Source: an uncultured Candidatus Saccharibacteria bacterium (GTDB lineage: Bacteria > Patescibacteriota > Dojkabacteria > SC72 > WJKH01). Taken from it: DNA of 64,000 nt. Positions 1,400 through 12,676 of the stretch are shown here, piece after piece; positions within the stretch are counted from its first letter, which is position 1; the number at the start of each line of letters is the position of its first letter. The translations under genes were made by a program, and so were the position numbers. A model generated the notes under the pieces. The model was not told the origin of the DNA. It did not search any database and saw nothing but the letters and a program-made list of their open reading frames with translations. The DNA is taken from contig CAZRRH010000003.1 in the NCBI GenBank assembly GCA_964602665.1, forward strand, positions 66,963 through 130,962. Reading direction: 5' to 3'.

Positions 1400-2026
1400 T
1401 TACTCGACTTCATTATATACGCTATAAAAAAGCTCTATTAGCTCATCATTTTCTAGCTGATGTCCAATAAGGCCCATCCTCGCAATTTGTTTTAATAGGT
1501 GATCTCGTTTAGGATACAAATATATTTTCGCTTGCTCAACCAGTTTTTCAAGCTCTGTATCGCCAATGCCAGTACTTTCATCTTTTTTGGGTAATGGTAG
1601 AATAGATGATAGGCTAAGATTATACACCATATGGGGCACAACTATATAGAATTTCTTGTCTAACACATCATTTTGAACTACTAAATTCTGTACAAATGTT
1701 GTATAAACGCTCATTTGCTTCCTTAACCCCTCTGACATAGGTTTTTTAAGCTCATTTTGTAGGTAATTAATATAATTTGATATGTCAATTCGTTTTGTGC
1801 GGATAACAACCTGTACCGGAAAAGTCAGAGAATTTAGAAGGCCAGAGAAGGCTCCTATTTTATTGTCTTGTTCATATTCTGAGAGCAAATCGAAGTTTAC
1901 AGCAGACGTTTGAATTATTAAATTAGCTTTCCTTGATTTAGTAATGACGATATCGTCAATTATCTCATGTATTTGTAAATGTTCCTGCGTCGAATTTTTT
2001 ACTTTGACCCTTGTTGATGGCTTCAT
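1400..2026 (-). CDS. hypothetical protein, co-operonic with VirB4-like ATPase
   Basis: 208-aa ORF. Its stop is 20 bp before the VirB4-like start, and its start overlaps the upstream membrane-protein gene by 4 bp (ATGA). No recognisable motifs. Confidence 0.35.
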   Translation of the reverse strand: MKPSTRVKVKNSTQEHLQIHEIIDDIVITKSRKANLIIQTSAVNFDLLSEYEQDNKIGAFSGLLNSLTFPVQVVIRTKRIDISNYINYLQNELKKPMSEGLRKQMSVYTTFVQNLVVQNDVLDKKFYIVVPHMVYNLSLSSILPLPKKDESTGIGDTELEKLVEQAKIYLYPKRDHLLKQIARMGLIGHQLENDELIELFYSVYNEVE

Positions 2027-2931
2027 TTCTTTATACCTATTATTTTAATTGGTTCATCCGTTCCTGTGTTAAAAGCATAAATGACTCTTGGAAACAAGTA
2101 ATCTGTGCTCTGTAAATCGATTTTGTATACTCCATGTGGATATTCTCGCTCTGTAATAATTTCTCCTTTTGAATCTGATACCTTTACCTGTAATATTTTC
2201 TCGCTATTATCTTTTATCATAACTACAGCTTTAGGGATAGGATAATTTGATTGGTCTCTTATTGATATGTTAATAGAGTTAGGCGGAGGAGAAATCAGCG
2301 AGAAAGGGGCTTTAAAAATATCAATATTTGAATTGTTTATTAATATTTCTGGAGGTACTTTTATCTGTTGTGGTATAGAAGTGCTTGTTGTAGCTGTTGA
2401 TGCCACAGCAGTTTCTTTCTCTTTTACAATCGTGGCTCCTTGCGCGATTTTATTTAGCTCTAGTTTTTTTTGACTCTCTTCCATCTCAATTTTATCTTCA
2501 GCTTGCTCTTTTTGCTGTATGGTTTTAGTTGACGAGCCAATTATCTTAGGATCTTGTTTAACGGCTTGCTGATTTTTGGCGTCGGCAAGGGCAACTGTAG
2601 CGCTTGAGTCTTTAAAAATGCTGTGGTCTAGATAGTCACTTCTCCATACTCTCAAAGTAGGCGAGCTTACGGATTTAATGAAATTTTTAAGGTAGACATC
2701 AGCTTTTTGATCATTAATTGGTACCAAACCAAGAAATGCCCCTGTACCAGAAGACAATAAAAAAATTGGTATGGCAATCCATCCGGGAATTGTGCGGTTT
2801 GACATAAGATATAGGAAAATGACTCCAAAGCCTAGACCTATTGCGATATATGCAAACTCTCTTATCGTAAAATGGGAGAAGAGTTTGAACTCTATATCAA
2901 GTATATTTTGTGGTATAGGATGTTGCTTCAT
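2023..2931 (-). CDS. membrane protein with N-terminal two-TM hairpin (possible VirB3/TcpE/PrgI-like T4SS component)
   Basis: 302-aa ORF. Two hydrophobic helices near the N-terminus (FAYIAIGLGFGVIFLYLMS and IPGWIAIPIFLLSSGTGAFLGLV). First gene of a three-gene minus-strand operon ending in the VirB4-like ATPase. Confidence 0.35.
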   Translation of the reverse strand: MKQHPIPQNILDIEFKLFSHFTIREFAYIAIGLGFGVIFLYLMSNRTIPGWIAIPIFLLSSGTGAFLGLVPINDQKADVYLKNFIKSVSSPTLRVWRSDYLDHSIFKDSSATVALADAKNQQAVKQDPKIIGSSTKTIQQKEQAEDKIEMEESQKKLELNKIAQGATIVKEKETAVASTATTSTSIPQQIKVPPEILINNSNIDIFKAPFSLISPPPNSINISIRDQSNYPIPKAVVMIKDNSEKILQVKVSDSKGEIITEREYPHGVYKIDLQSTDYLFPRVIYAFNTGTDEPIKIIGIKK

Positions 2932-7750: not shown

Positions 7751-8056
7751 ATGGAGCAATTTCATATATATCAGAAACAGATACTAAAAAGCTTAATGTA
7801 TAAATCTTCATTAAGATTTAATGAACTAATGATTCCAGAATTGTCTTCTAAGCATTTTAATTATCATCTTAAGAAGCTTATCGAAGGTGGCTATGTGACA
7901 AATAAAAACAGGCAGTATGTTTTAACAGATGAGGGTAAAGAGCTTGTAAAACGAAAAGATCTATTTAATACATTTTCAGATAAACTAGAATTTGTAAGAA
8001 ATCCTCAAAAAGGAGTACAATTCAGGGAGATAATTACAGAGGCAGAGGGCTATTAG
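7751..8056 (+). CDS. small winged-helix-like DNA-binding protein (putative transcriptional regulator)
   Basis: 101 aa. Pattern LRFNELMIPELSSKHFNYHLKKLIEGGYV...YVLTDEGKELV resembles a wHTH recognition helix plus wing. Confidence 0.3.
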   Translation: MEQFHIYQKQILKSLMYKSSLRFNELMIPELSSKHFNYHLKKLIEGGYVTNKNRQYVLTDEGKELVKRKDLFNTFSDKLEFVRNPQKGVQFREIITEAEGY

Positions 8057-8140: not shown

Positions 8141-8169
8141 TTGACAAACTTCATCATTTATGTTAGTAT
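8141..8169 (+). promoter_or_regulatory. sigma70-like promoter upstream of DGR target gene (TTGACA-17-TAGTAT)
   Basis: TTGACA at 8141-8146, 17-nt spacer, TAGTAT at 8164-8169, about 30 bp upstream of the 8199 start. Confidence 0.3.
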
Positions 8170-8198: not shown

Positions 8199-9227
8199 AT
8201 GAAGAAAAAATCTTTATTAATAAGTTACTTCTTTGTTTCGGGTCTGTTTCTAATGACCTGTCTTTTATTAGGAAGGAATTTTAAAGTATCAGCAACAAGT
8301 ACTCCCCCTATTACTGATCAGGTATCAATATTAGATCAGATATACACGAGATTAGTTACAAGCGGATTTGGTACGGAGTCATCAGGAGATCATGGTAATT
8401 TTGGTGTAAAATGGAATAGAATAGCAAGTAGTGCGTATTGGATACCAGATGGAGATGCAACTGCAGAAGATGTTGTAACGGGAAAAACCTTTTATGGAGG
8501 TAACAGAACAGAACAAACGGGAACATTGTCATTAACAGGAGATGCTACGGTTGATGATGTAGTTTCTGGAAAGACATTTTATTCAGATTCATTCACTAAA
8601 TTAACAGGTACAGCACCCGAACCAATAGATTTTTCTCTTATGCAATTTAATGAATATGATGATTATGAAGGATTAGCAACTGGTAGTATTGATCCAACAA
8701 ACCCGATAGATGATTACGAAGGAGATGAAGCTATATGGACAAATACATCGACAAATGTATGGAAGGATGAACGAACAGGTCTTTTCTGGAGTGCAGATGT
8801 AAGCACTTTGGGATTGGGACTTCCAGCAACATATTCTAATGCTTTTCCTAATCAAGTCCATACAACTTGCCCATTCTTTTCTTCCAATCCAAGAGCTAGC
8901 TATGATGGACTAACAGCCTCATGTGGTAACGCTATAAATGTATGTGGAACATTATCATATGATAGGGACAATGATGGAGAAGCAGAGACGGACTGGTATC
9001 TACCAACTCAAAAAGAATTAATGCAGGCCTACATAGATGGTATGTATAATCAAGCAGGAGCTAATCTAGAAGGCGCGGCGACATTTACCACTACAAACTT
9101 TTTCTGGTCCTCCTCGGAGGTGTCCTTCTATCCTACGAACGCATGGGGCGTTTCCCTGCTCGTCGGCAACACGAACCTCAACGCTAAGGCAAGTACTTTC
9201 GCTGTGCGTTGTGTTTCTCGGGACTGA
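8199..9227 (+). CDS. DGR target protein: N-terminally membrane-anchored surface protein with C-terminal DUF1566/C-type-lectin-fold-like variable domain
   Basis: N-terminal TM/signal (LLISYFFVSGLFLMTCLLLG). Internal GKTFY repeat motifs. C-terminal DWYLPTQKEL...FWSSSEVS...NAWGVSLLVGNTN...FAVRCVSRD matches the conserved DGR-target lectin-fold motif pattern. The last about 41 codons are the VR. Confidence 0.8.
   Translation: MKKKSLLISYFFVSGLFLMTCLLLGRNFKVSATSTPPITDQVSILDQIYTRLVTSGFGTESSGDHGNFGVKWNRIASSAYWIPDGDATAEDVVTGKTFYGGNRTEQTGTLSLTGDATVDDVVSGKTFYSDSFTKLTGTAPEPIDFSLMQFNEYDDYEGLATGSIDPTNPIDDYEGDEAIWTNTSTNVWKDERTGLFWSADVSTLGLGLPATYSNAFPNQVHTTCPFFSSNPRASYDGLTASCGNAINVCGTLSYDRDNDGEAETDWYLPTQKELMQAYIDGMYNQAGANLEGAATFTTTNFFWSSSEVSFYPTNAWGVSLLVGNTNLNAKASTFAVRCVSRD
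9102..9224 (+). repeat. DGR variable repeat (VR) at 3' end of target gene
   Basis: 123 nt aligning gap-free with 9532-9654. The 5' 24 nt and 3' 24 nt are identical. All 22 mismatches lie where the other copy has A. Locally GC-rich (A-depleted). Confidence 0.85.
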
Positions 9228-9531
9228 TATGATTAGAATTTGATAATTTTCAACTTAAAATTTCCCCGTGGGATATTTAGGGCTATTGACATATACCTTA
9301 TCAATTGGTATCTTACAACTGTGCGTGGATTCTACCATTTCAATCCCCAAGACGGGCAATGGATAGTAGAGAAGGCTTGATTATCAGTCCGTTCCACTAC
9401 ACCCTGTGAGACATTTTTGGTTTTTACAGGGTATTATTATTCAACAAACCTTTTCTGTCGCAATACAGATCAGTTTTGTGGTGTGTCAGATGATTTTCAT
9501 CTGAACAAAGTCAGTGGAAAACAATGTTGTG

Positions 9532-9654
9532 TTCTGGTCCTCCTCGGAGGTGTCCAACAATCCTACAAACGCATGGAACGTAAACCTGAACAACGGCAAC
9601 ACGAACAACAACAATAAGACAAATACAAACGCTGTGCGTTGTGTTTCTCGGGAC
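9532..9654 (+). repeat. DGR template repeat (TR)
   Basis: 123-nt copy of the VR that is rich in AAC/AAT codons. Every VR/TR difference is an A in this copy. Non-coding position between target gene and avd. Confidence 0.85.
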
Positions 9655-9666
9655 TTATTTTCAAGC

Positions 9667-10029
9667 CTATACGCTTTTTTGTTTCTGAGCCCATGTATAC
9701 CACCCGTAAAGCATTTTGGCGATCTCTTCGTTTTGAGACATTATGTAAGTGTATTGTTTATGAGTGATAAGTTTTAGTTCATGAGCCATACGCAGTCTTG
9801 ATTTCAGTTTGTCAAATGAAGCTGAGGTATTGCGAATGGTCTTAGTTTTCTCAATGTTTGACAGGACATTAGTTGAAATAATCCCATCGAGTACATCCCA
9901 TGTACATTTAAGAATATCTTGTCCAAGTGTGTACTTGTATTCCTTCCTGAAGTTTTTCACAAGTAGATACAAATATTTCAAAAGCTTGTACACGGCTATA
10001 TATAAGGGGAGTTCATCTAAATTGCTCAT
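9667..10029 (-). CDS. avd: DGR accessory variability determinant (Avd, four-helix-bundle protein)
   Basis: 120 aa. N-terminal LPLYIAVYKLLKYLYLLVKNFRKEYKYTLGQDI matches the Avd/four-helix-bundle consensus (LPVYK...KNFPKEEKY.L..QI). Overlaps the RT gene by 4 bp. Confidence 0.8.
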   Translation of the reverse strand: MSNLDELPLYIAVYKLLKYLYLLVKNFRKEYKYTLGQDILKCTWDVLDGIISTNVLSNIEKTKTIRNTSASFDKLKSRLRMAHELKLITHKQYTYIMSQNEEIAKMLYGWYTWAQKQKSV

Positions 10030-11228
10030 TTTTGTTTTTTAACTAAAATAAAATATGAAAAATTGTCATCTATTGGAACCAAGTAATTTTTCAAAGTTCC
10101 AAAATGATTTTCATACAGATCTCTACGAAGATTGAAGCAGTTTGCATGTTTAAAATGTCCGTAGTAAGAATTAACCATAGCTAACATCTTTTTAAGCTCC
10201 TTTTCTGTCGGAGGAGTAGATAATGGTAATGCCATCTGTTTTTGATTTTGGGAAACAAGTAGTTTTCCTTTATTGAAATAGTGAAGCTTTGTTTTGAGGT
10301 TTTGAACAACACGCTTTCGAGCAAGTGCATATTTAGGCTTAACTATATAACCAATGAAATCTATTCCCGAATAAACGGAGTTGTATTTATCTTTGTTCGG
10401 ATGAAGTGTCAGTTTTAGTCTTTTCTGCAAAAATGTGTCAATTTGGTCTCTCCATGATTTGATCTTATCAAGATCATTTGAAAGAATGATAAAATCATCG
10501 ACATATCGGACGTAATATTTGATTTTCAATTCACGTTTTATAAATTGATCGAGCTCATTCAAGTACACATTAGCAAAAAACTGAGAAGTAAGATTCCCTA
10601 TAGGAAGCCCCTTGTCTTTCCCAGCATTAAAAAGCGTTTTGTGGGGCGGTATCTGTTTTAAAAGTGCCTGATCGCCTTTAAAGTAGAAATTCTTAGTTGG
10701 ATTATGATTAATAATTATTTGGGTAAGCCAGATTAAATCAGCTTGTTTTTTGATAGGAAAATTTCTCATAATATATCTGATTATGATTTTTTTCAAAATA
10801 TCCTTGTCAATGCTTGCAAAAAAGCTTCTGATATCAAACTGACCGTAGTAAGCTGTGATCGTGTTGTTTTTAGTTGCAGAGCGGATCATTTTTTGAGTAT
10901 AGGTAATTGCTAATTGTAAGCCTTTCATTTTTCTACAGGCAAAAGAAGCATATATAAAACTTTTTTCAAAATATGGCTCTAGGGTAGAAACCAACAAGTG
11001 ATGAACAATCCGGTCTCTAAAGTCAGCTGCAAAAACTTCTCTCAATTTGGGGTATGTGACAACAAAACAAATAGATCTATCAGGTTTATATGTTCTATCT
11101 TGCAGTTCTTCAAAAAGCTTCAGTAAATTTGACTCGAATTTCATTTCGAACCTAAGGGCGTTGATAGTAGTTCTTTTATTCTTTCTGCATGAGTAATATG
11201 CTTTTAGTAAATTTTCGAGTGTAAACAT
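10026..11228 (-). CDS. DGR reverse transcriptase
   Basis: 400 aa. RT motifs including YVRYVDDFIIL (the YxDD box). Lies downstream of avd and adjacent to the TR/VR pair. Confidence 0.9.
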   Translation of the reverse strand: MFTLENLLKAYYSCRKNKRTTINALRFEMKFESNLLKLFEELQDRTYKPDRSICFVVTYPKLREVFAADFRDRIVHHLLVSTLEPYFEKSFIYASFACRKMKGLQLAITYTQKMIRSATKNNTITAYYGQFDIRSFFASIDKDILKKIIIRYIMRNFPIKKQADLIWLTQIIINHNPTKNFYFKGDQALLKQIPPHKTLFNAGKDKGLPIGNLTSQFFANVYLNELDQFIKRELKIKYYVRYVDDFIILSNDLDKIKSWRDQIDTFLQKRLKLTLHPNKDKYNSVYSGIDFIGYIVKPKYALARKRVVQNLKTKLHYFNKGKLLVSQNQKQMALPLSTPPTEKELKKMLAMVNSYYGHFKHANCFNLRRDLYENHFGTLKNYLVPIDDNFSYFILVKKQK

Positions 11229-11503: not shown

Positions 11504-12676
11504 ATGCTTAGTATGAAAAAATTAACAAAAATTTATCTTTTTCTTTTAATATTTTTATTACTTCCTCCAATTGCCTTCGCTTCTTCACCAACCTATCTTG
11601 GAGGAACAGCCAATGTTCCAAGTACGGCGGGTTCGTTATATCTAAATACGAACAATGCATCAGTATCTTTAGATACTGAAACTGGAAATCTTTCAGGTTA
11701 TGGATGGTCAGATGATATTGGCTGGATTGATTTTGATAATGCAGGTGAAATTGCAACTTCAGCAAAAATAAACATGACAACAGGTATATTTGAGGGAAAG
11801 GCTGTAGCAGTAAATACAGGTAAATATCTTGATTTCTCCAATTATGGTAGCAATGTAAAACTGAATTTTGGCTTGAAAGAAATCACAGGTTATGGTTGGT
11901 CTGAAGATATTGGCTGGATAGATTTTAATGGAGTAATACTATATAGTGCAGATAGTGCAATTAAACCAGTTATAACTCAAATAGGGCTTATAAAAAGCAT
12001 TCCTGACAAAGATAAGCTTTACTACTATTTTACAGCAAATAGGGTTCGTATATGGGGAACCAGTGAAAAATATAGTGAAATCTTCTTTGCACATTCAAAT
12101 GGAACAACATACAAAACTCAGGCAGATATTGATGGTAAATTTTATATAGTAATTGATCTATTGAATGGAGAGAATGAATTAACATATTACAGTATTAATC
12201 TCGCATCAAATCGTTCAATAAATAAGATTTTAATATTAAATATTGATCCAACATACGGTTTAAAAACAGGAAATAATGGAGAACTAATACCGGAAGTTCA
12301 AATTGTAGAAAGTTCTGAGATAGAGACGGAAACTGTAAAGGAAAATTCTGAGGAAGTTACTCCGCCAATAGAAGCAAAGAAAATAAGGGTTATTGATTTA
12401 GATGGTAATCCGATAATAAATAAGCTAATAACGATAGAGGGAATAGATTACATCACTGATTCTTTTGGATACATCTATATAAACGAAGAGATAGTAGGAG
12501 ATTTTGTTCTTTACGACGGAAAATCTTATCCTATTAAGCTATCAGGAGAGGATCTAATTTTGGATTTATCAAGTCAGAAAGGAAGTTTTAACTATCTGTA
12601 CTGCTTTTTCCCTTTGATAGCTTTACTACTTATCGTTTTGACAGTGGTTATTGTCCGTAGAAAAAAGATATCATAA
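11504..12676 (+). CDS. secreted/cell-surface repeat protein with C-terminal membrane anchor
   Basis: Signal peptide (LFLLIFLLLPPIAFASS). Two GYGWS(D/E)DIGWIDF(D/N) repeats. C-terminal hydrophobic helix plus RRKK tail. Confidence 0.45.
   Translation: MLSMKKLTKIYLFLLIFLLLPPIAFASSPTYLGGTANVPSTAGSLYLNTNNASVSLDTETGNLSGYGWSDDIGWIDFDNAGEIATSAKINMTTGIFEGKAVAVNTGKYLDFSNYGSNVKLNFGLKEITGYGWSEDIGWIDFNGVILYSADSAIKPVITQIGLIKSIPDKDKLYYYFTANRVRIWGTSEKYSEIFFAHSNGTTYKTQADIDGKFYIVIDLLNGENELTYYSINLASNRSINKILILNIDPTYGLKTGNNGELIPEVQIVESSEIETETVKENSEEVTPPIEAKKIRVIDLDGNPIINKLITIEGIDYITDSFGYIYINEEIVGDFVLYDGKSYPIKLSGEDLILDLSSQKGSFNYLYCFFPLIALLLIVLTVVIVRRKKIS

Follow-up and report, generated by a model that had tools for sequence, protein, structure and literature searches.

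A diversity-generating retroelement and its target, a putative stalk-and-head binding protein of a Patescibacteria bacterium

The DNA analysed here (the window) comprises 64,000 nucleotides, positions 66,963 to 130,962 of the forward strand of contig CAZRRH010000003.1 (assembly GCA_964602665.1), from an uncultured bacterium deposited as Candidatus Saccharibacteria and assigned to the Dojkabacteria in the GTDB lineage. It harbours a diversity-generating retroelement (DGR) whose target gene occupies positions 8199–9227. An original prediction, made from the sequence alone, had described the encoded protein as a membrane-anchored surface adhesin or receptor-binding protein with internal GKTFY motifs and a lectin-like C-terminus that is varied by the DGR. 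Public data already hold a protein identical to the window target (P0001). The target gene and the DGR cassette are composed as follows.

8199–9227, plus strand: target (variable protein) gene of the DGR, an open reading frame of 342 amino acids
8199–8294, plus strand: putative N-terminal export signal, residues 1–32 (KKK, hydrophobic residues 5–25, then V-S-A/T, where the slash marks the candidate cleavage point)
8316–8438, plus strand: conserved helical N-terminal region, residues 40–80 (AlphaFold2 helices, conserved residues)
8451–8537, plus strand: GKTFY repeat 1, residues 85–113 (repeat unit comparison, phmmer)
8538–8624, plus strand: GKTFY repeat 2, residues 114–142 (repeat unit comparison, phmmer)
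8625–9224, plus strand: acidic linker and DUF1566/Lcl_C head, residues 143–342 (Pfam, AlphaFold2, Foldseek)
9102–9225, plus strand: variable repeat (VR), codons 302–342 to the first base of the stop codon (alignment with the template repeat, natural variants)
9532–9655, plus strand: template repeat (TR) with 41 adenines and 14 AAY codons (alignment with the VR)
9667–10029, minus strand: avd accessory gene, 120 amino acids (Pfam bAvd, NCBIfam DivGenRetAVD)
10026–11228, minus strand: DGR reverse transcriptase (RT), 400 amino acids (Pfam RVT_1, motifs)

VR and TR align without gaps over 124 nucleotides and differ at 22 positions, each of which is an adenine in the TR. In other words, 22 of the 41 TR adenines are replaced in the VR, by T (11 times), G (7 times) or C (4 times). 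These differences fall into 14 codons and cause 11 amino acid changes plus three synonymous third-position exchanges; what had been counted as 22 variable codon positions are thus really 22 nucleotide positions. The GC-rich last 25 nucleotides of the VR (9201–9225) are identical to the TR and resemble an initiation of mutagenic homing (IMH) element, with no IMH/IMH* difference inside. A further copy of the VR/TR 3′ end (24 nucleotides, GC-rich) was not found in the 64-kb window, zero being expected, and only one VR corresponds to the TR in this range. The Avd protein matches Pfam bAvd (E 3.6e-17) and NCBIfam DivGenRetAVD (E 4e-19; its 68.9 bits are below the 80-bit equivalog cut-off), and the RT matches Pfam RVT_1 (E 9.2e-16). 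A motif of the type (I/L/V)GxxxSQ is a hallmark of DGR-type reverse transcriptases, and the RT translation contains IGNLTSQ as well as YVDD.

The TR encodes 14 AAY (Asn) codons, each of which can give rise to 15 amino acids and never to a stop, and four ACR (Thr) codons with four possible amino acids each. From these codons one calculates a repertoire of about 15^14 x 4^4, i.e. about 7x10^18 stop-free peptides and hence protein tips. An adenine stands at the first or second codon position in 21 TR codons altogether, 17 of which vary among natural variants. The TR lies on the strand opposite to avd and the RT gene and ends 11 nucleotides short of the avd stop codon. Therefore, its transcript would run antisense into the avd 3′ end and would require its own promoter, for which there is a candidate at 9286–9314. 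The same layout recurs in most of the related loci that bear an RT.

The natural variants give a direct view of the diversification. We aligned the 12 members of the 90%-identity cluster of the target protein, which differ almost solely at codons 310, 311, 313, 314, 317, 319, 321, 322, 324–329, 331, 332 and 334, with up to nine different residues per position. All residues at these codons fit the NNY or NCR sets; K, E, Q, M and W never occur there in the 12 variants. The syntenic locus in three other metagenome assemblies (L056, L057 and L058) was compared with the window at the DNA level. In each of them the TR is identical (124/124), whereas the VR shows 18 (L056) or 11 (L057 and L058) differences, all at TR adenines; the other 905 nucleotides of the gene differ at four, one and one positions, respectively. 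The VR thus diverges by about 9–15% across assemblies, compared with 0.1–0.4% for the rest of the gene. Since the TR is constant and the VR has changed only at adenine-templated sites, the DGR has been active recently; a VR/TR pattern of this kind is the mark of mutagenic retrohoming that is still going on or took place very recently. Together with the strict adenine specificity of the mismatches and the adjacent Avd and RT genes, the natural VR variants bear out the proposal that the specificity region of the target is reprogrammed by the DGR.

Some adenine-templated codons do not follow this pattern. Both adenines of the TR codon AAG (9616–9618) that corresponds to K330 (9186–9188) are unsubstituted in the window and in the 12 variants, and the lysine is invariant in 70 of 70 homologues. 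An A-to-T exchange at the first base of this codon would create a TAG stop. As K330 is kept although about half of the TR adenines are substituted per VR, the residue seems to be under strong selection. The adenines of E307 (GAG), T333 (ACA, first base) and D342 (GAC) are likewise unsubstituted. The sole non-adenine change in the VRs of the 12 variants is W316C in cluster member P0128, at the adenine-free TR codon TGG; it may have arisen by ordinary mutation, by rare mutagenesis at a non-adenine site or through an error in assembly.

The variable stretch lies within a recognisable domain. Residues 188–339 match Pfam PF07603 (Lcl_C, formerly DUF1566; E 3.1e-13, 50.5 bits versus a cut-off of 34.9), which overlaps the VR and is present in all 120 homologues among the matches listed. 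Four cysteines of the head (C224, C242, C249 and C338) are invariant in 70 of 70 sequences, which would fit an extracytoplasmic, disulfide-bonded domain. An AlphaFold2 model of residues 143–342 alone reached a predicted local distance difference test (pLDDT) score of 86.1 and a predicted template modelling (pTM) score of 0.83; the full-length model has a mean pLDDT of 76.5, with values above 90 for the final ~160 residues. When the domain model was compared with the Protein Data Bank (PDB) by Foldseek, the sole significant match was the C-terminal domain (CTD) of Legionella pneumophila Lcl (8q4e; E 1.6e-4, probability 1.00), with a template modelling (TM) score of 0.54 normalised to the target. 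The alignment of 8q4e with the full-length model spans 85 columns at 34% identity and a root-mean-square deviation of 3.1 Å. The Foldseek list is almost wholly C-type-lectin-like, comprising snake-venom C-type lectins, langerin, CD94/NKG2A and intimin (E 0.1–1); invasin InvE was matched as well, in the full-length run only. A search of the BFVD with the head returned phage DUF1566 and tail-fibre proteins. As an aside, the molecule name of 8q4e_A in the PDB is HbP1, whereas Foldseek identified the entry as Lcl-CTD; the literature on the name HbP1 yielded the human transcription factor only.

In agreement with the expected DUF1566/C-type-lectin-like C-terminus, the head is thus predicted with confidence and falls into this family above the cut-off. 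The search among profile families that the original prediction had proposed was successful in part: PF07603 was matched, but the target has no match to the Pfam families FGE-sulfatase, Mtd or Lectin_C at E<=1. As FGE-sulfatase is not matched, the fold would represent the DUF1566 subtype, and according to the model the head is a C-type-lectin fold of category 'd' (CLec2) of DGR targets. An FGE-sulfatase-type CLec domain of the TvpA/Mtd class was rejected for the lack of a Pfam match and its absence from the top 50 structural matches. A canonical Ca2+-dependent C-type lectin was rejected as well, since Lectin_C is not matched and the structural likeness is at the fold level only. Category 'd' unites DUF1566 targets with those of the DUF823 and Fib_succ_major types, and an example is LdtA of Legionella pneumophila (Wu et al. 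2018, PMC5758913). The window target resembles this class in having a VR in the C-terminal DUF1566 domain, adenine-specific TR/VR mismatches, an Avd plus RT cassette and an apparently exported, surface-directed protein, and about half of the class carry N-terminal extensions (PMC5758913). Unlike the lipoprotein LdtA, it lacks a canonical lipobox, belongs to a Patescibacterium, has its TR opposite to avd and RT, and bears the GKTFY repeat as its extension.

The relationship with Lcl allows the varied residues to be placed on a structure. To our knowledge, Lcl provides the only solved or characterised DUF1566 domain. Four of its lysines (Lys380, Lys385, Lys391 and Lys369) were shown to bind glycosaminoglycan (GAG), and the first three are required for this binding according to experiment (Rehman et al. 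2024, PMC11162425). We transferred the numbering through a phmmer alignment, in which Lcl numbers equal the 8q4e chain index plus 236, as checked on Arg338, Glu344, Glu368, Lys369, Lys380, Lys385, Asp386 and Lys391. The correspondences are these.

Lcl Lys380, GAG-binding: L321 here, DGR-variable
Lcl Lys385, GAG-binding: N326 here, DGR-variable
Lcl Lys391, GAG-binding: S332 here, DGR-variable
Lcl Lys369, GAG-binding: V308 here, adjoining the variable pair 310/311 (inserted here as compared with Lcl)
Lcl Asp386, surface: L327 here, DGR-variable
Lcl Glu368, cavity: E307 here, invariant
Lcl Lys389: K330 here, invariant

In the predicted strand 314–320, the variable positions 314, 317 and 319 alternate with the invariant core-type residues A315, W316, V318 and L320, and in the hairpin 321–329 every position except G323 is variable. 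The invariant VR positions W303, A315, W316, V318, L320, G323, V336 and C338 are all of the core type. As three of the four GAG-binding lysines of Lcl align with variable residues, the varied residues probably occupy the homologous ligand-binding face. The pattern supports a placement of the diversified residues on two beta-strands and their loops that match the GAG-binding upper surface of the Lcl head, their exposure being deduced from this homology. The same homology lends indirect support to the earlier proposal that the variable residues decorate a ligand-binding face and not the core.

At the other end of the protein, the N-terminus consists of MKKK, an uncharged hydrophobic stretch of 21 residues (5–25; Kyte-Doolittle 19-residue mean 2.32) and the sequence GRNFKVSA/TS. 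The hydrophobic segment is present in 66 of 70 homologues, the other four appearing truncated. Export of the target protein via this N-terminal hydrophobic signal is well supported at the sequence level, and the signal could be a signal peptide of the Sec type that can be cleaved off, or a signal anchor that stays in place. The membrane anchor that had been assumed is therefore one of two options: the hydrophobic segment is real, but a V-S-A/T site follows. It is quite possible, if slightly short of an even chance, that a Sec signal is cleaved off and that the mature protein, beginning near T33, is either set free or stays attached non-covalently to the wall or a pilus; it would then not be a membrane-anchored adhesin. 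In the window protein the signal-peptidase-I-like V-S-A/T stands seven residues past the hydrophobic stretch; the nearest sub-family has a conserved V-[FL]-A/E-Q at the equivalent position, which is a classical –3/–1 signal-peptidase I pattern, and Lcl itself is secreted and then re-associates with the surface. Conversely, the long hydrophobic stretch is modelled by AlphaFold2 as part of a single continuous helix (residues 2–25), and the Dojkabacteria-type sub-family has no AXA-like motif after the hydrophobic segment (FLFFKPNKEV...), which suggests an uncleaved anchor there. A lipoprotein anchor was rejected: a canonical lipobox [LVI][ASTVI][GAS]C is absent from the target N-terminus, and its sole candidate, L-M-T-C21, is non-canonical at –1, while C21 is replaced by G in one close variant and missing from the family consensus. 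The region that follows is predicted to be helical (residues 40–55 and 66–79 in the full-length AlphaFold2 model), and Y49, L52 and W81 are kept across the alignment of homologues.

Between this region and the head, GKTFY occurs at residues 95 and 124, within two adjacent units of 29 amino acids, GDATAEDVVTGKTFYGGNRTEQTGTLSLT and GDATVDDVVSGKTFYSDSFTKLTGTAPEP, that have 16 of 29 residues and 53 of 87 nucleotides in common. The unit recurs one to six times in 70 homologues (222 units), mostly with a period of 29 residues and with 34 or 37 residues in one sub-family, and its consensus reads G-D-A-x-x-x-D-V-L-x-G-K-T-F-Y-S-N-S-x-T-L-L-T-G-T. Because of this recurrence the repeat is not a chance likeness, and the tandem units first noticed in the sequence are genuine. 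A phmmer search with the 58-residue repeat region against 1.84 billion representatives retrieved 613 cluster representatives at E<=1e-3, 119–1666 amino acids long and with up to 16 matched stretches; the repeat carriers were catalogued as P0132–P0334. The region corresponds to no Pfam family and has no credible sequence match in the PDB (cyclophilin at E ~0.4–1 is noise), and the literature on GKTFY, GKKFY and GKTFYS gave unrelated matches only. It does match phrog_30220, a family of unknown function.

The domains C-terminal to the repeat are diverse, including DUF1566 (P0279), BspA-type leucine-rich repeats (P0220), Gly_rich_2 (P0225, P0200 and P0204) or no known domain. Since the repeat precedes differing heads, its behaviour is that of a stalk module on which a binding head is displayed. 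One carrier, P0133 at locus L053, lies between Gp10_C tail genes and prophage endolysin/holin genes, i.e. in the usual position of a tail fibre, and another GKTFY protein is encoded on a phage-like contig. The window target shares with these phage tail-fibre-position and other modular proteins (P0133, P0148, P0200, P0220, P0225 and P0279) the repeat GDAxxxDV.xGKTFY....x.TGT N-terminal to a variable head; their heads are Gly_rich_2, BspA-type leucine-rich repeats, DUF1566 or of unknown type, and many of them have no signal peptide and are located in prophage tail modules. From these sequences, the GKTFY repeat appears to be an unannotated stalk module common to phage tail-fibre-like proteins.

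The target protein has 318 homologues at E<=1e-3, and the closest named ones among those listed are from Patescibacteria and Candidatus Dojkabacteria. Among species-representative genomes, a scan revealed 51 loci, most of them in metagenome-assembled genomes labelled as Patescibacteria types (Dojkabacteria, Woesebacteria, Saccharibacteria-labelled and others). In about 24 of the 51, an RT lies no more than 5 kb away, the usual order being target (plus), TR (plus), avd (minus), RT (minus), and in 17 there is a VR/TR pair in which 80% or more of the mismatches, mostly all of them, fall at TR adenines. The paralogue L014 does not match the TR of the same genome (L006) at >=70% identity and is thus not a trans target; some family members therefore seem to be unlinked to a DGR or to use other TRs. 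In the window the DGR is flanked by RecF, LepA, RuvX and AlaRS genes, with the same synteny in other assemblies. These housekeeping flanks point to a chromosomal, cellular DGR.

Taken together, we propose with a probability of roughly 85% that the product of the gene is the variable protein belonging to a chromosomal DGR in a bacterium of the Patescibacteria (Candidate Phyla Radiation, CPR), namely an exported stalk-and-head protein with a DUF1566 lectin-like tip and a putative binding function. RT and Avd would make a cDNA copy of the TR RNA, placing random nucleotides wherever the RNA has an adenine, and the mutagenised cDNA would then replace the VR, if the retrohoming chemistry is that of other DGRs. 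The helical N-terminal part and the two GKTFY repeats would carry the C-terminal, C-type-lectin-like DUF1566 head. Most likely, the product functions as a cell-surface or secreted binder, either an adhesin or a ligand-capture protein, whose specificity the DGR would keep re-drawing, plausibly for the attachment of a small, probably host-dependent cell to changing host glycans or proteins.

Several points weigh against this proposal. The Lcl alignment is pairwise and weak (phmmer E 0.027), although co-membership in the Pfam family and Foldseek back it. C-type-lectin-like domains other than Lcl are weak matches (E 0.1–1, TM ~0.5, 6–13% identity), and neither Mtd nor TvpA is among the top 50 Foldseek matches in the PDB. 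For the stalk repeats, the AlphaFold2 model gives a short helix plus beta-hairpin per unit, but its confidence there is low (pLDDT ~60); speculatively, such low confidence would be compatible with a need for oligomerisation. The literature counts on both sides: DGRs are enriched in CPR bacteria, for which a CPR-restricted DGR clade has been described (PMC8144416), but Roux et al. reported that CPR DGR targets typically lack recognisable transmembrane or other conserved domains, so that surface display is no settled generality (PMC8144416).

Lcl (8q4e; Rehman et al. 2024, PMC11162425) is the best match in both sequence and structure, and it has a similar build, in which an N-terminal helix is followed by a stalk whose repeat number varies and by a DUF1566 head. 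Lcl is not known to be diversified by a DGR and its stalk is a collagen triple helix, whereas the window target is DGR-diversified and has a GKTFY stalk; Lcl-CTD is without disulfides, whereas the window family has four invariant cysteines. The Lcl head is trimeric, and its interface residues Arg342 and Phe343 align with Q271 and K272 of the window target. Assignment to the Lcl equivalog (NCBIfam NF046116) was rejected, as the match is restricted to the head (21.6 bits versus a cut-off of 500) and GXY repeats are missing. It is well established from Mtd (Bordetella phage BPP-1) and TvpA (Treponema denticola) that a fold of the C-type-lectin type can accommodate massive variation in a solvent-exposed binding site, one that AAY codons at the C-terminus encode. 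These proteins are of the CLec1/FGE-sulfatase type and the window head belongs to a different CLec subtype, but the principle of diversification is alike.

An unlikely alternative is that the protein is not an adhesin but a receptor or decoy that is diversified to escape phages or predators, or a sensor of foreign molecules in defence. DGR-diversified putative antigen sensors have been described from multicellular bacteria (PMC10907252), and the head fold and stalk repeat are common to phage tail-fibre-like proteins. Yet neither the target nor the neighbours examined contain a signalling or effector domain, the architecture is a plain succession of export signal, stalk and lectin head, and the diversified face coincides with the ligand-binding face of Lcl. 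It is far less probable still that we are dealing with the receptor-binding tail-fibre protein of a phage or tailocin in a prophage remnant, with the DGR serving tropism switching as in BPP-1. The GKTFY proteins at L053 and on the phage-like contig, the phrog_30220 match of the repeat and the phage DUF1566/tail-fibre matches of the head in the BFVD speak for such an origin. They are outweighed by the syntenic housekeeping flanks, the Sec-type N-terminal signal, which tail fibres lack, the absence of any phage structural gene among 11 open reading frames scanned against Pfam (~2.0–20 kb) and the absence of a PHROG match for the window protein. We therefore rejected the tail-fibre assignment; what is common to phage proteins is the repeat module and the head fold. 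Finally, that the VR/TR pair is merely the relic of a DGR that no longer works is hardly credible, given intact RT and Avd reading frames, a TR identical in four assemblies next to VRs that differ only at adenine-templated sites, and a VR divergence far above that of the remaining gene; the comparison of the assemblies already contradicts it.

Related loci have also conserved the 300 nucleotides that separate VR and TR. This spacer contains the following features, listed here with a promoter-like site in front of the target gene.

8141–8169, plus strand: promoter-like site TTGACA-17-TAGTAT with a TG extension, 5′ of the target gene (consensus scan)
9258–9278, plus strand: hairpin AAAT.TCCC-CGT-GGGA.ATTT, 3′ of the VR (folding, alignment of related loci)
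9286–9314, plus strand: promoter-like site TTGACA-17-TATCTT with TG, upstream of the TR RNA (consensus scan)
9317–9483, plus strand: conserved structured RNA of five helices and ~165 nucleotides, 5′ of the TR (RNAalifold, covariance model)

For the RNA, RNAalifold applied to eight loci gave 26 base pairs, 16 of them with compensatory changes. A covariance model detects the RNA in 19 of 52 sources with E values of 1e-9 to 1e-30, always on the target strand between the target gene and the TR (the window plus L003–L006, L009, L011, L013, L015–L017, L022–L025, L031, L032, L035 and L040), and 11 of the RNA-bearing loci were outside the training set of the model. In the resulting alignment, which is fitted to the model, 92.5% of the cells are paired versus 74.4% in shuffles (0 of 500 reach it), 19 of the 26 pairs show double (compensatory) changes, and the covariation score of 0.574 exceeds both that of shuffles (0.238) and that of slid partners (0.153 at most). 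No Rfam family was found for the RNA, neither when the whole window was searched at the gathering threshold nor when 9200–10100 was searched at E<=10. The element is a candidate for a functional component of the DGR RNA in this Patescibacteria clade. Weinberg et al. described, for BPP-1, an RT-10 motif that lies between TR and RT; they also speculated that DGRs account for further RT motifs (PMC5737381). Compared with the RT-10 motif of BPP-1, the window RNA is located on the other (5′) side of the TR, and the TR RNA here is antisense to avd.

The hairpin 3′ of the VR forms a weak stem in the window (z = –0.31, not significant alone). In the relatives L003–L006, L011, L022 and L035, however, long GC-rich stems are found 30–50 nucleotides after the VR and stop codon, in which the sequence differs and complementarity is kept; some are then followed by T-runs. 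The element could be a DGR target-recognition hairpin, a terminator, or both. Regarding the promoter-like sites, the TTGA-type hexamer of the one at 9286–9314 is conserved in the alignment of related loci. The site at 8141–8169 is a positional fit only, because the region holds no more of these sites than shuffling would predict.

A more daring combination of these observations, which we consider rather doubtful, would be a trimeric 'lollipop' fibre similar to Lcl in which an undescribed GKTFY stalk replaces collagen and the head is reprogrammed by the DGR, so that a module of the phage-fibre type would have been domesticated by Patescibacteria for host attachment; the clade would perhaps also depend on the RNA 5′ of the TR and on a TR transcribed antisense to avd. 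If true, an RNA 5′ and not 3′ of the TR would imply an arrangement for priming or assembly unlike the BPP-1 paradigm.

DGR targets of the DUF1566/CLec2 type are already known and are common in Patescibacteria, and the window gene is one more, unusually well documented by natural variants. As it is a textbook DGR target and an identical protein is already public, little changes conceptually. It is nevertheless a clean CPR target with a recognisable export signal and head domain and with direct population evidence of activity, and it lets DGR-variable positions be matched, residue by residue, with the ligand-binding face that experiments have defined in Lcl. The protein is thereby a tractable candidate for learning what Patescibacteria bind with diversified proteins. 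The unannotated family of stalk repeats and the conserved TR-proximal RNA are modest but concrete leads.

Some neighbouring genes deserve mention. Directly upstream of the target gene, 7751–8056 (plus strand) encodes a small winged-helix protein (DUF7347/HTH_45) that is kept at this place in other assemblies and possibly regulates the target or the DGR. About 5 kb upstream of the DGR, the open reading frame 2023–2931 (minus strand) codes for a protein with a PrgI-family domain, a membrane protein type associated with type IV secretion and conjugation. On the other side, beside the DGR, the open reading frame 11504–12676 (plus strand) encodes 390 amino acids with an N-terminal signal, a C-terminal hydrophobic tail (…LIALLLIVLTVVIVRRKK) and two copies of a GYGWS(D/E)DIGWIDF motif. 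It has weak immunoglobulin-like matches only, its synteny is kept in other assemblies, and its product is probably another surface protein.

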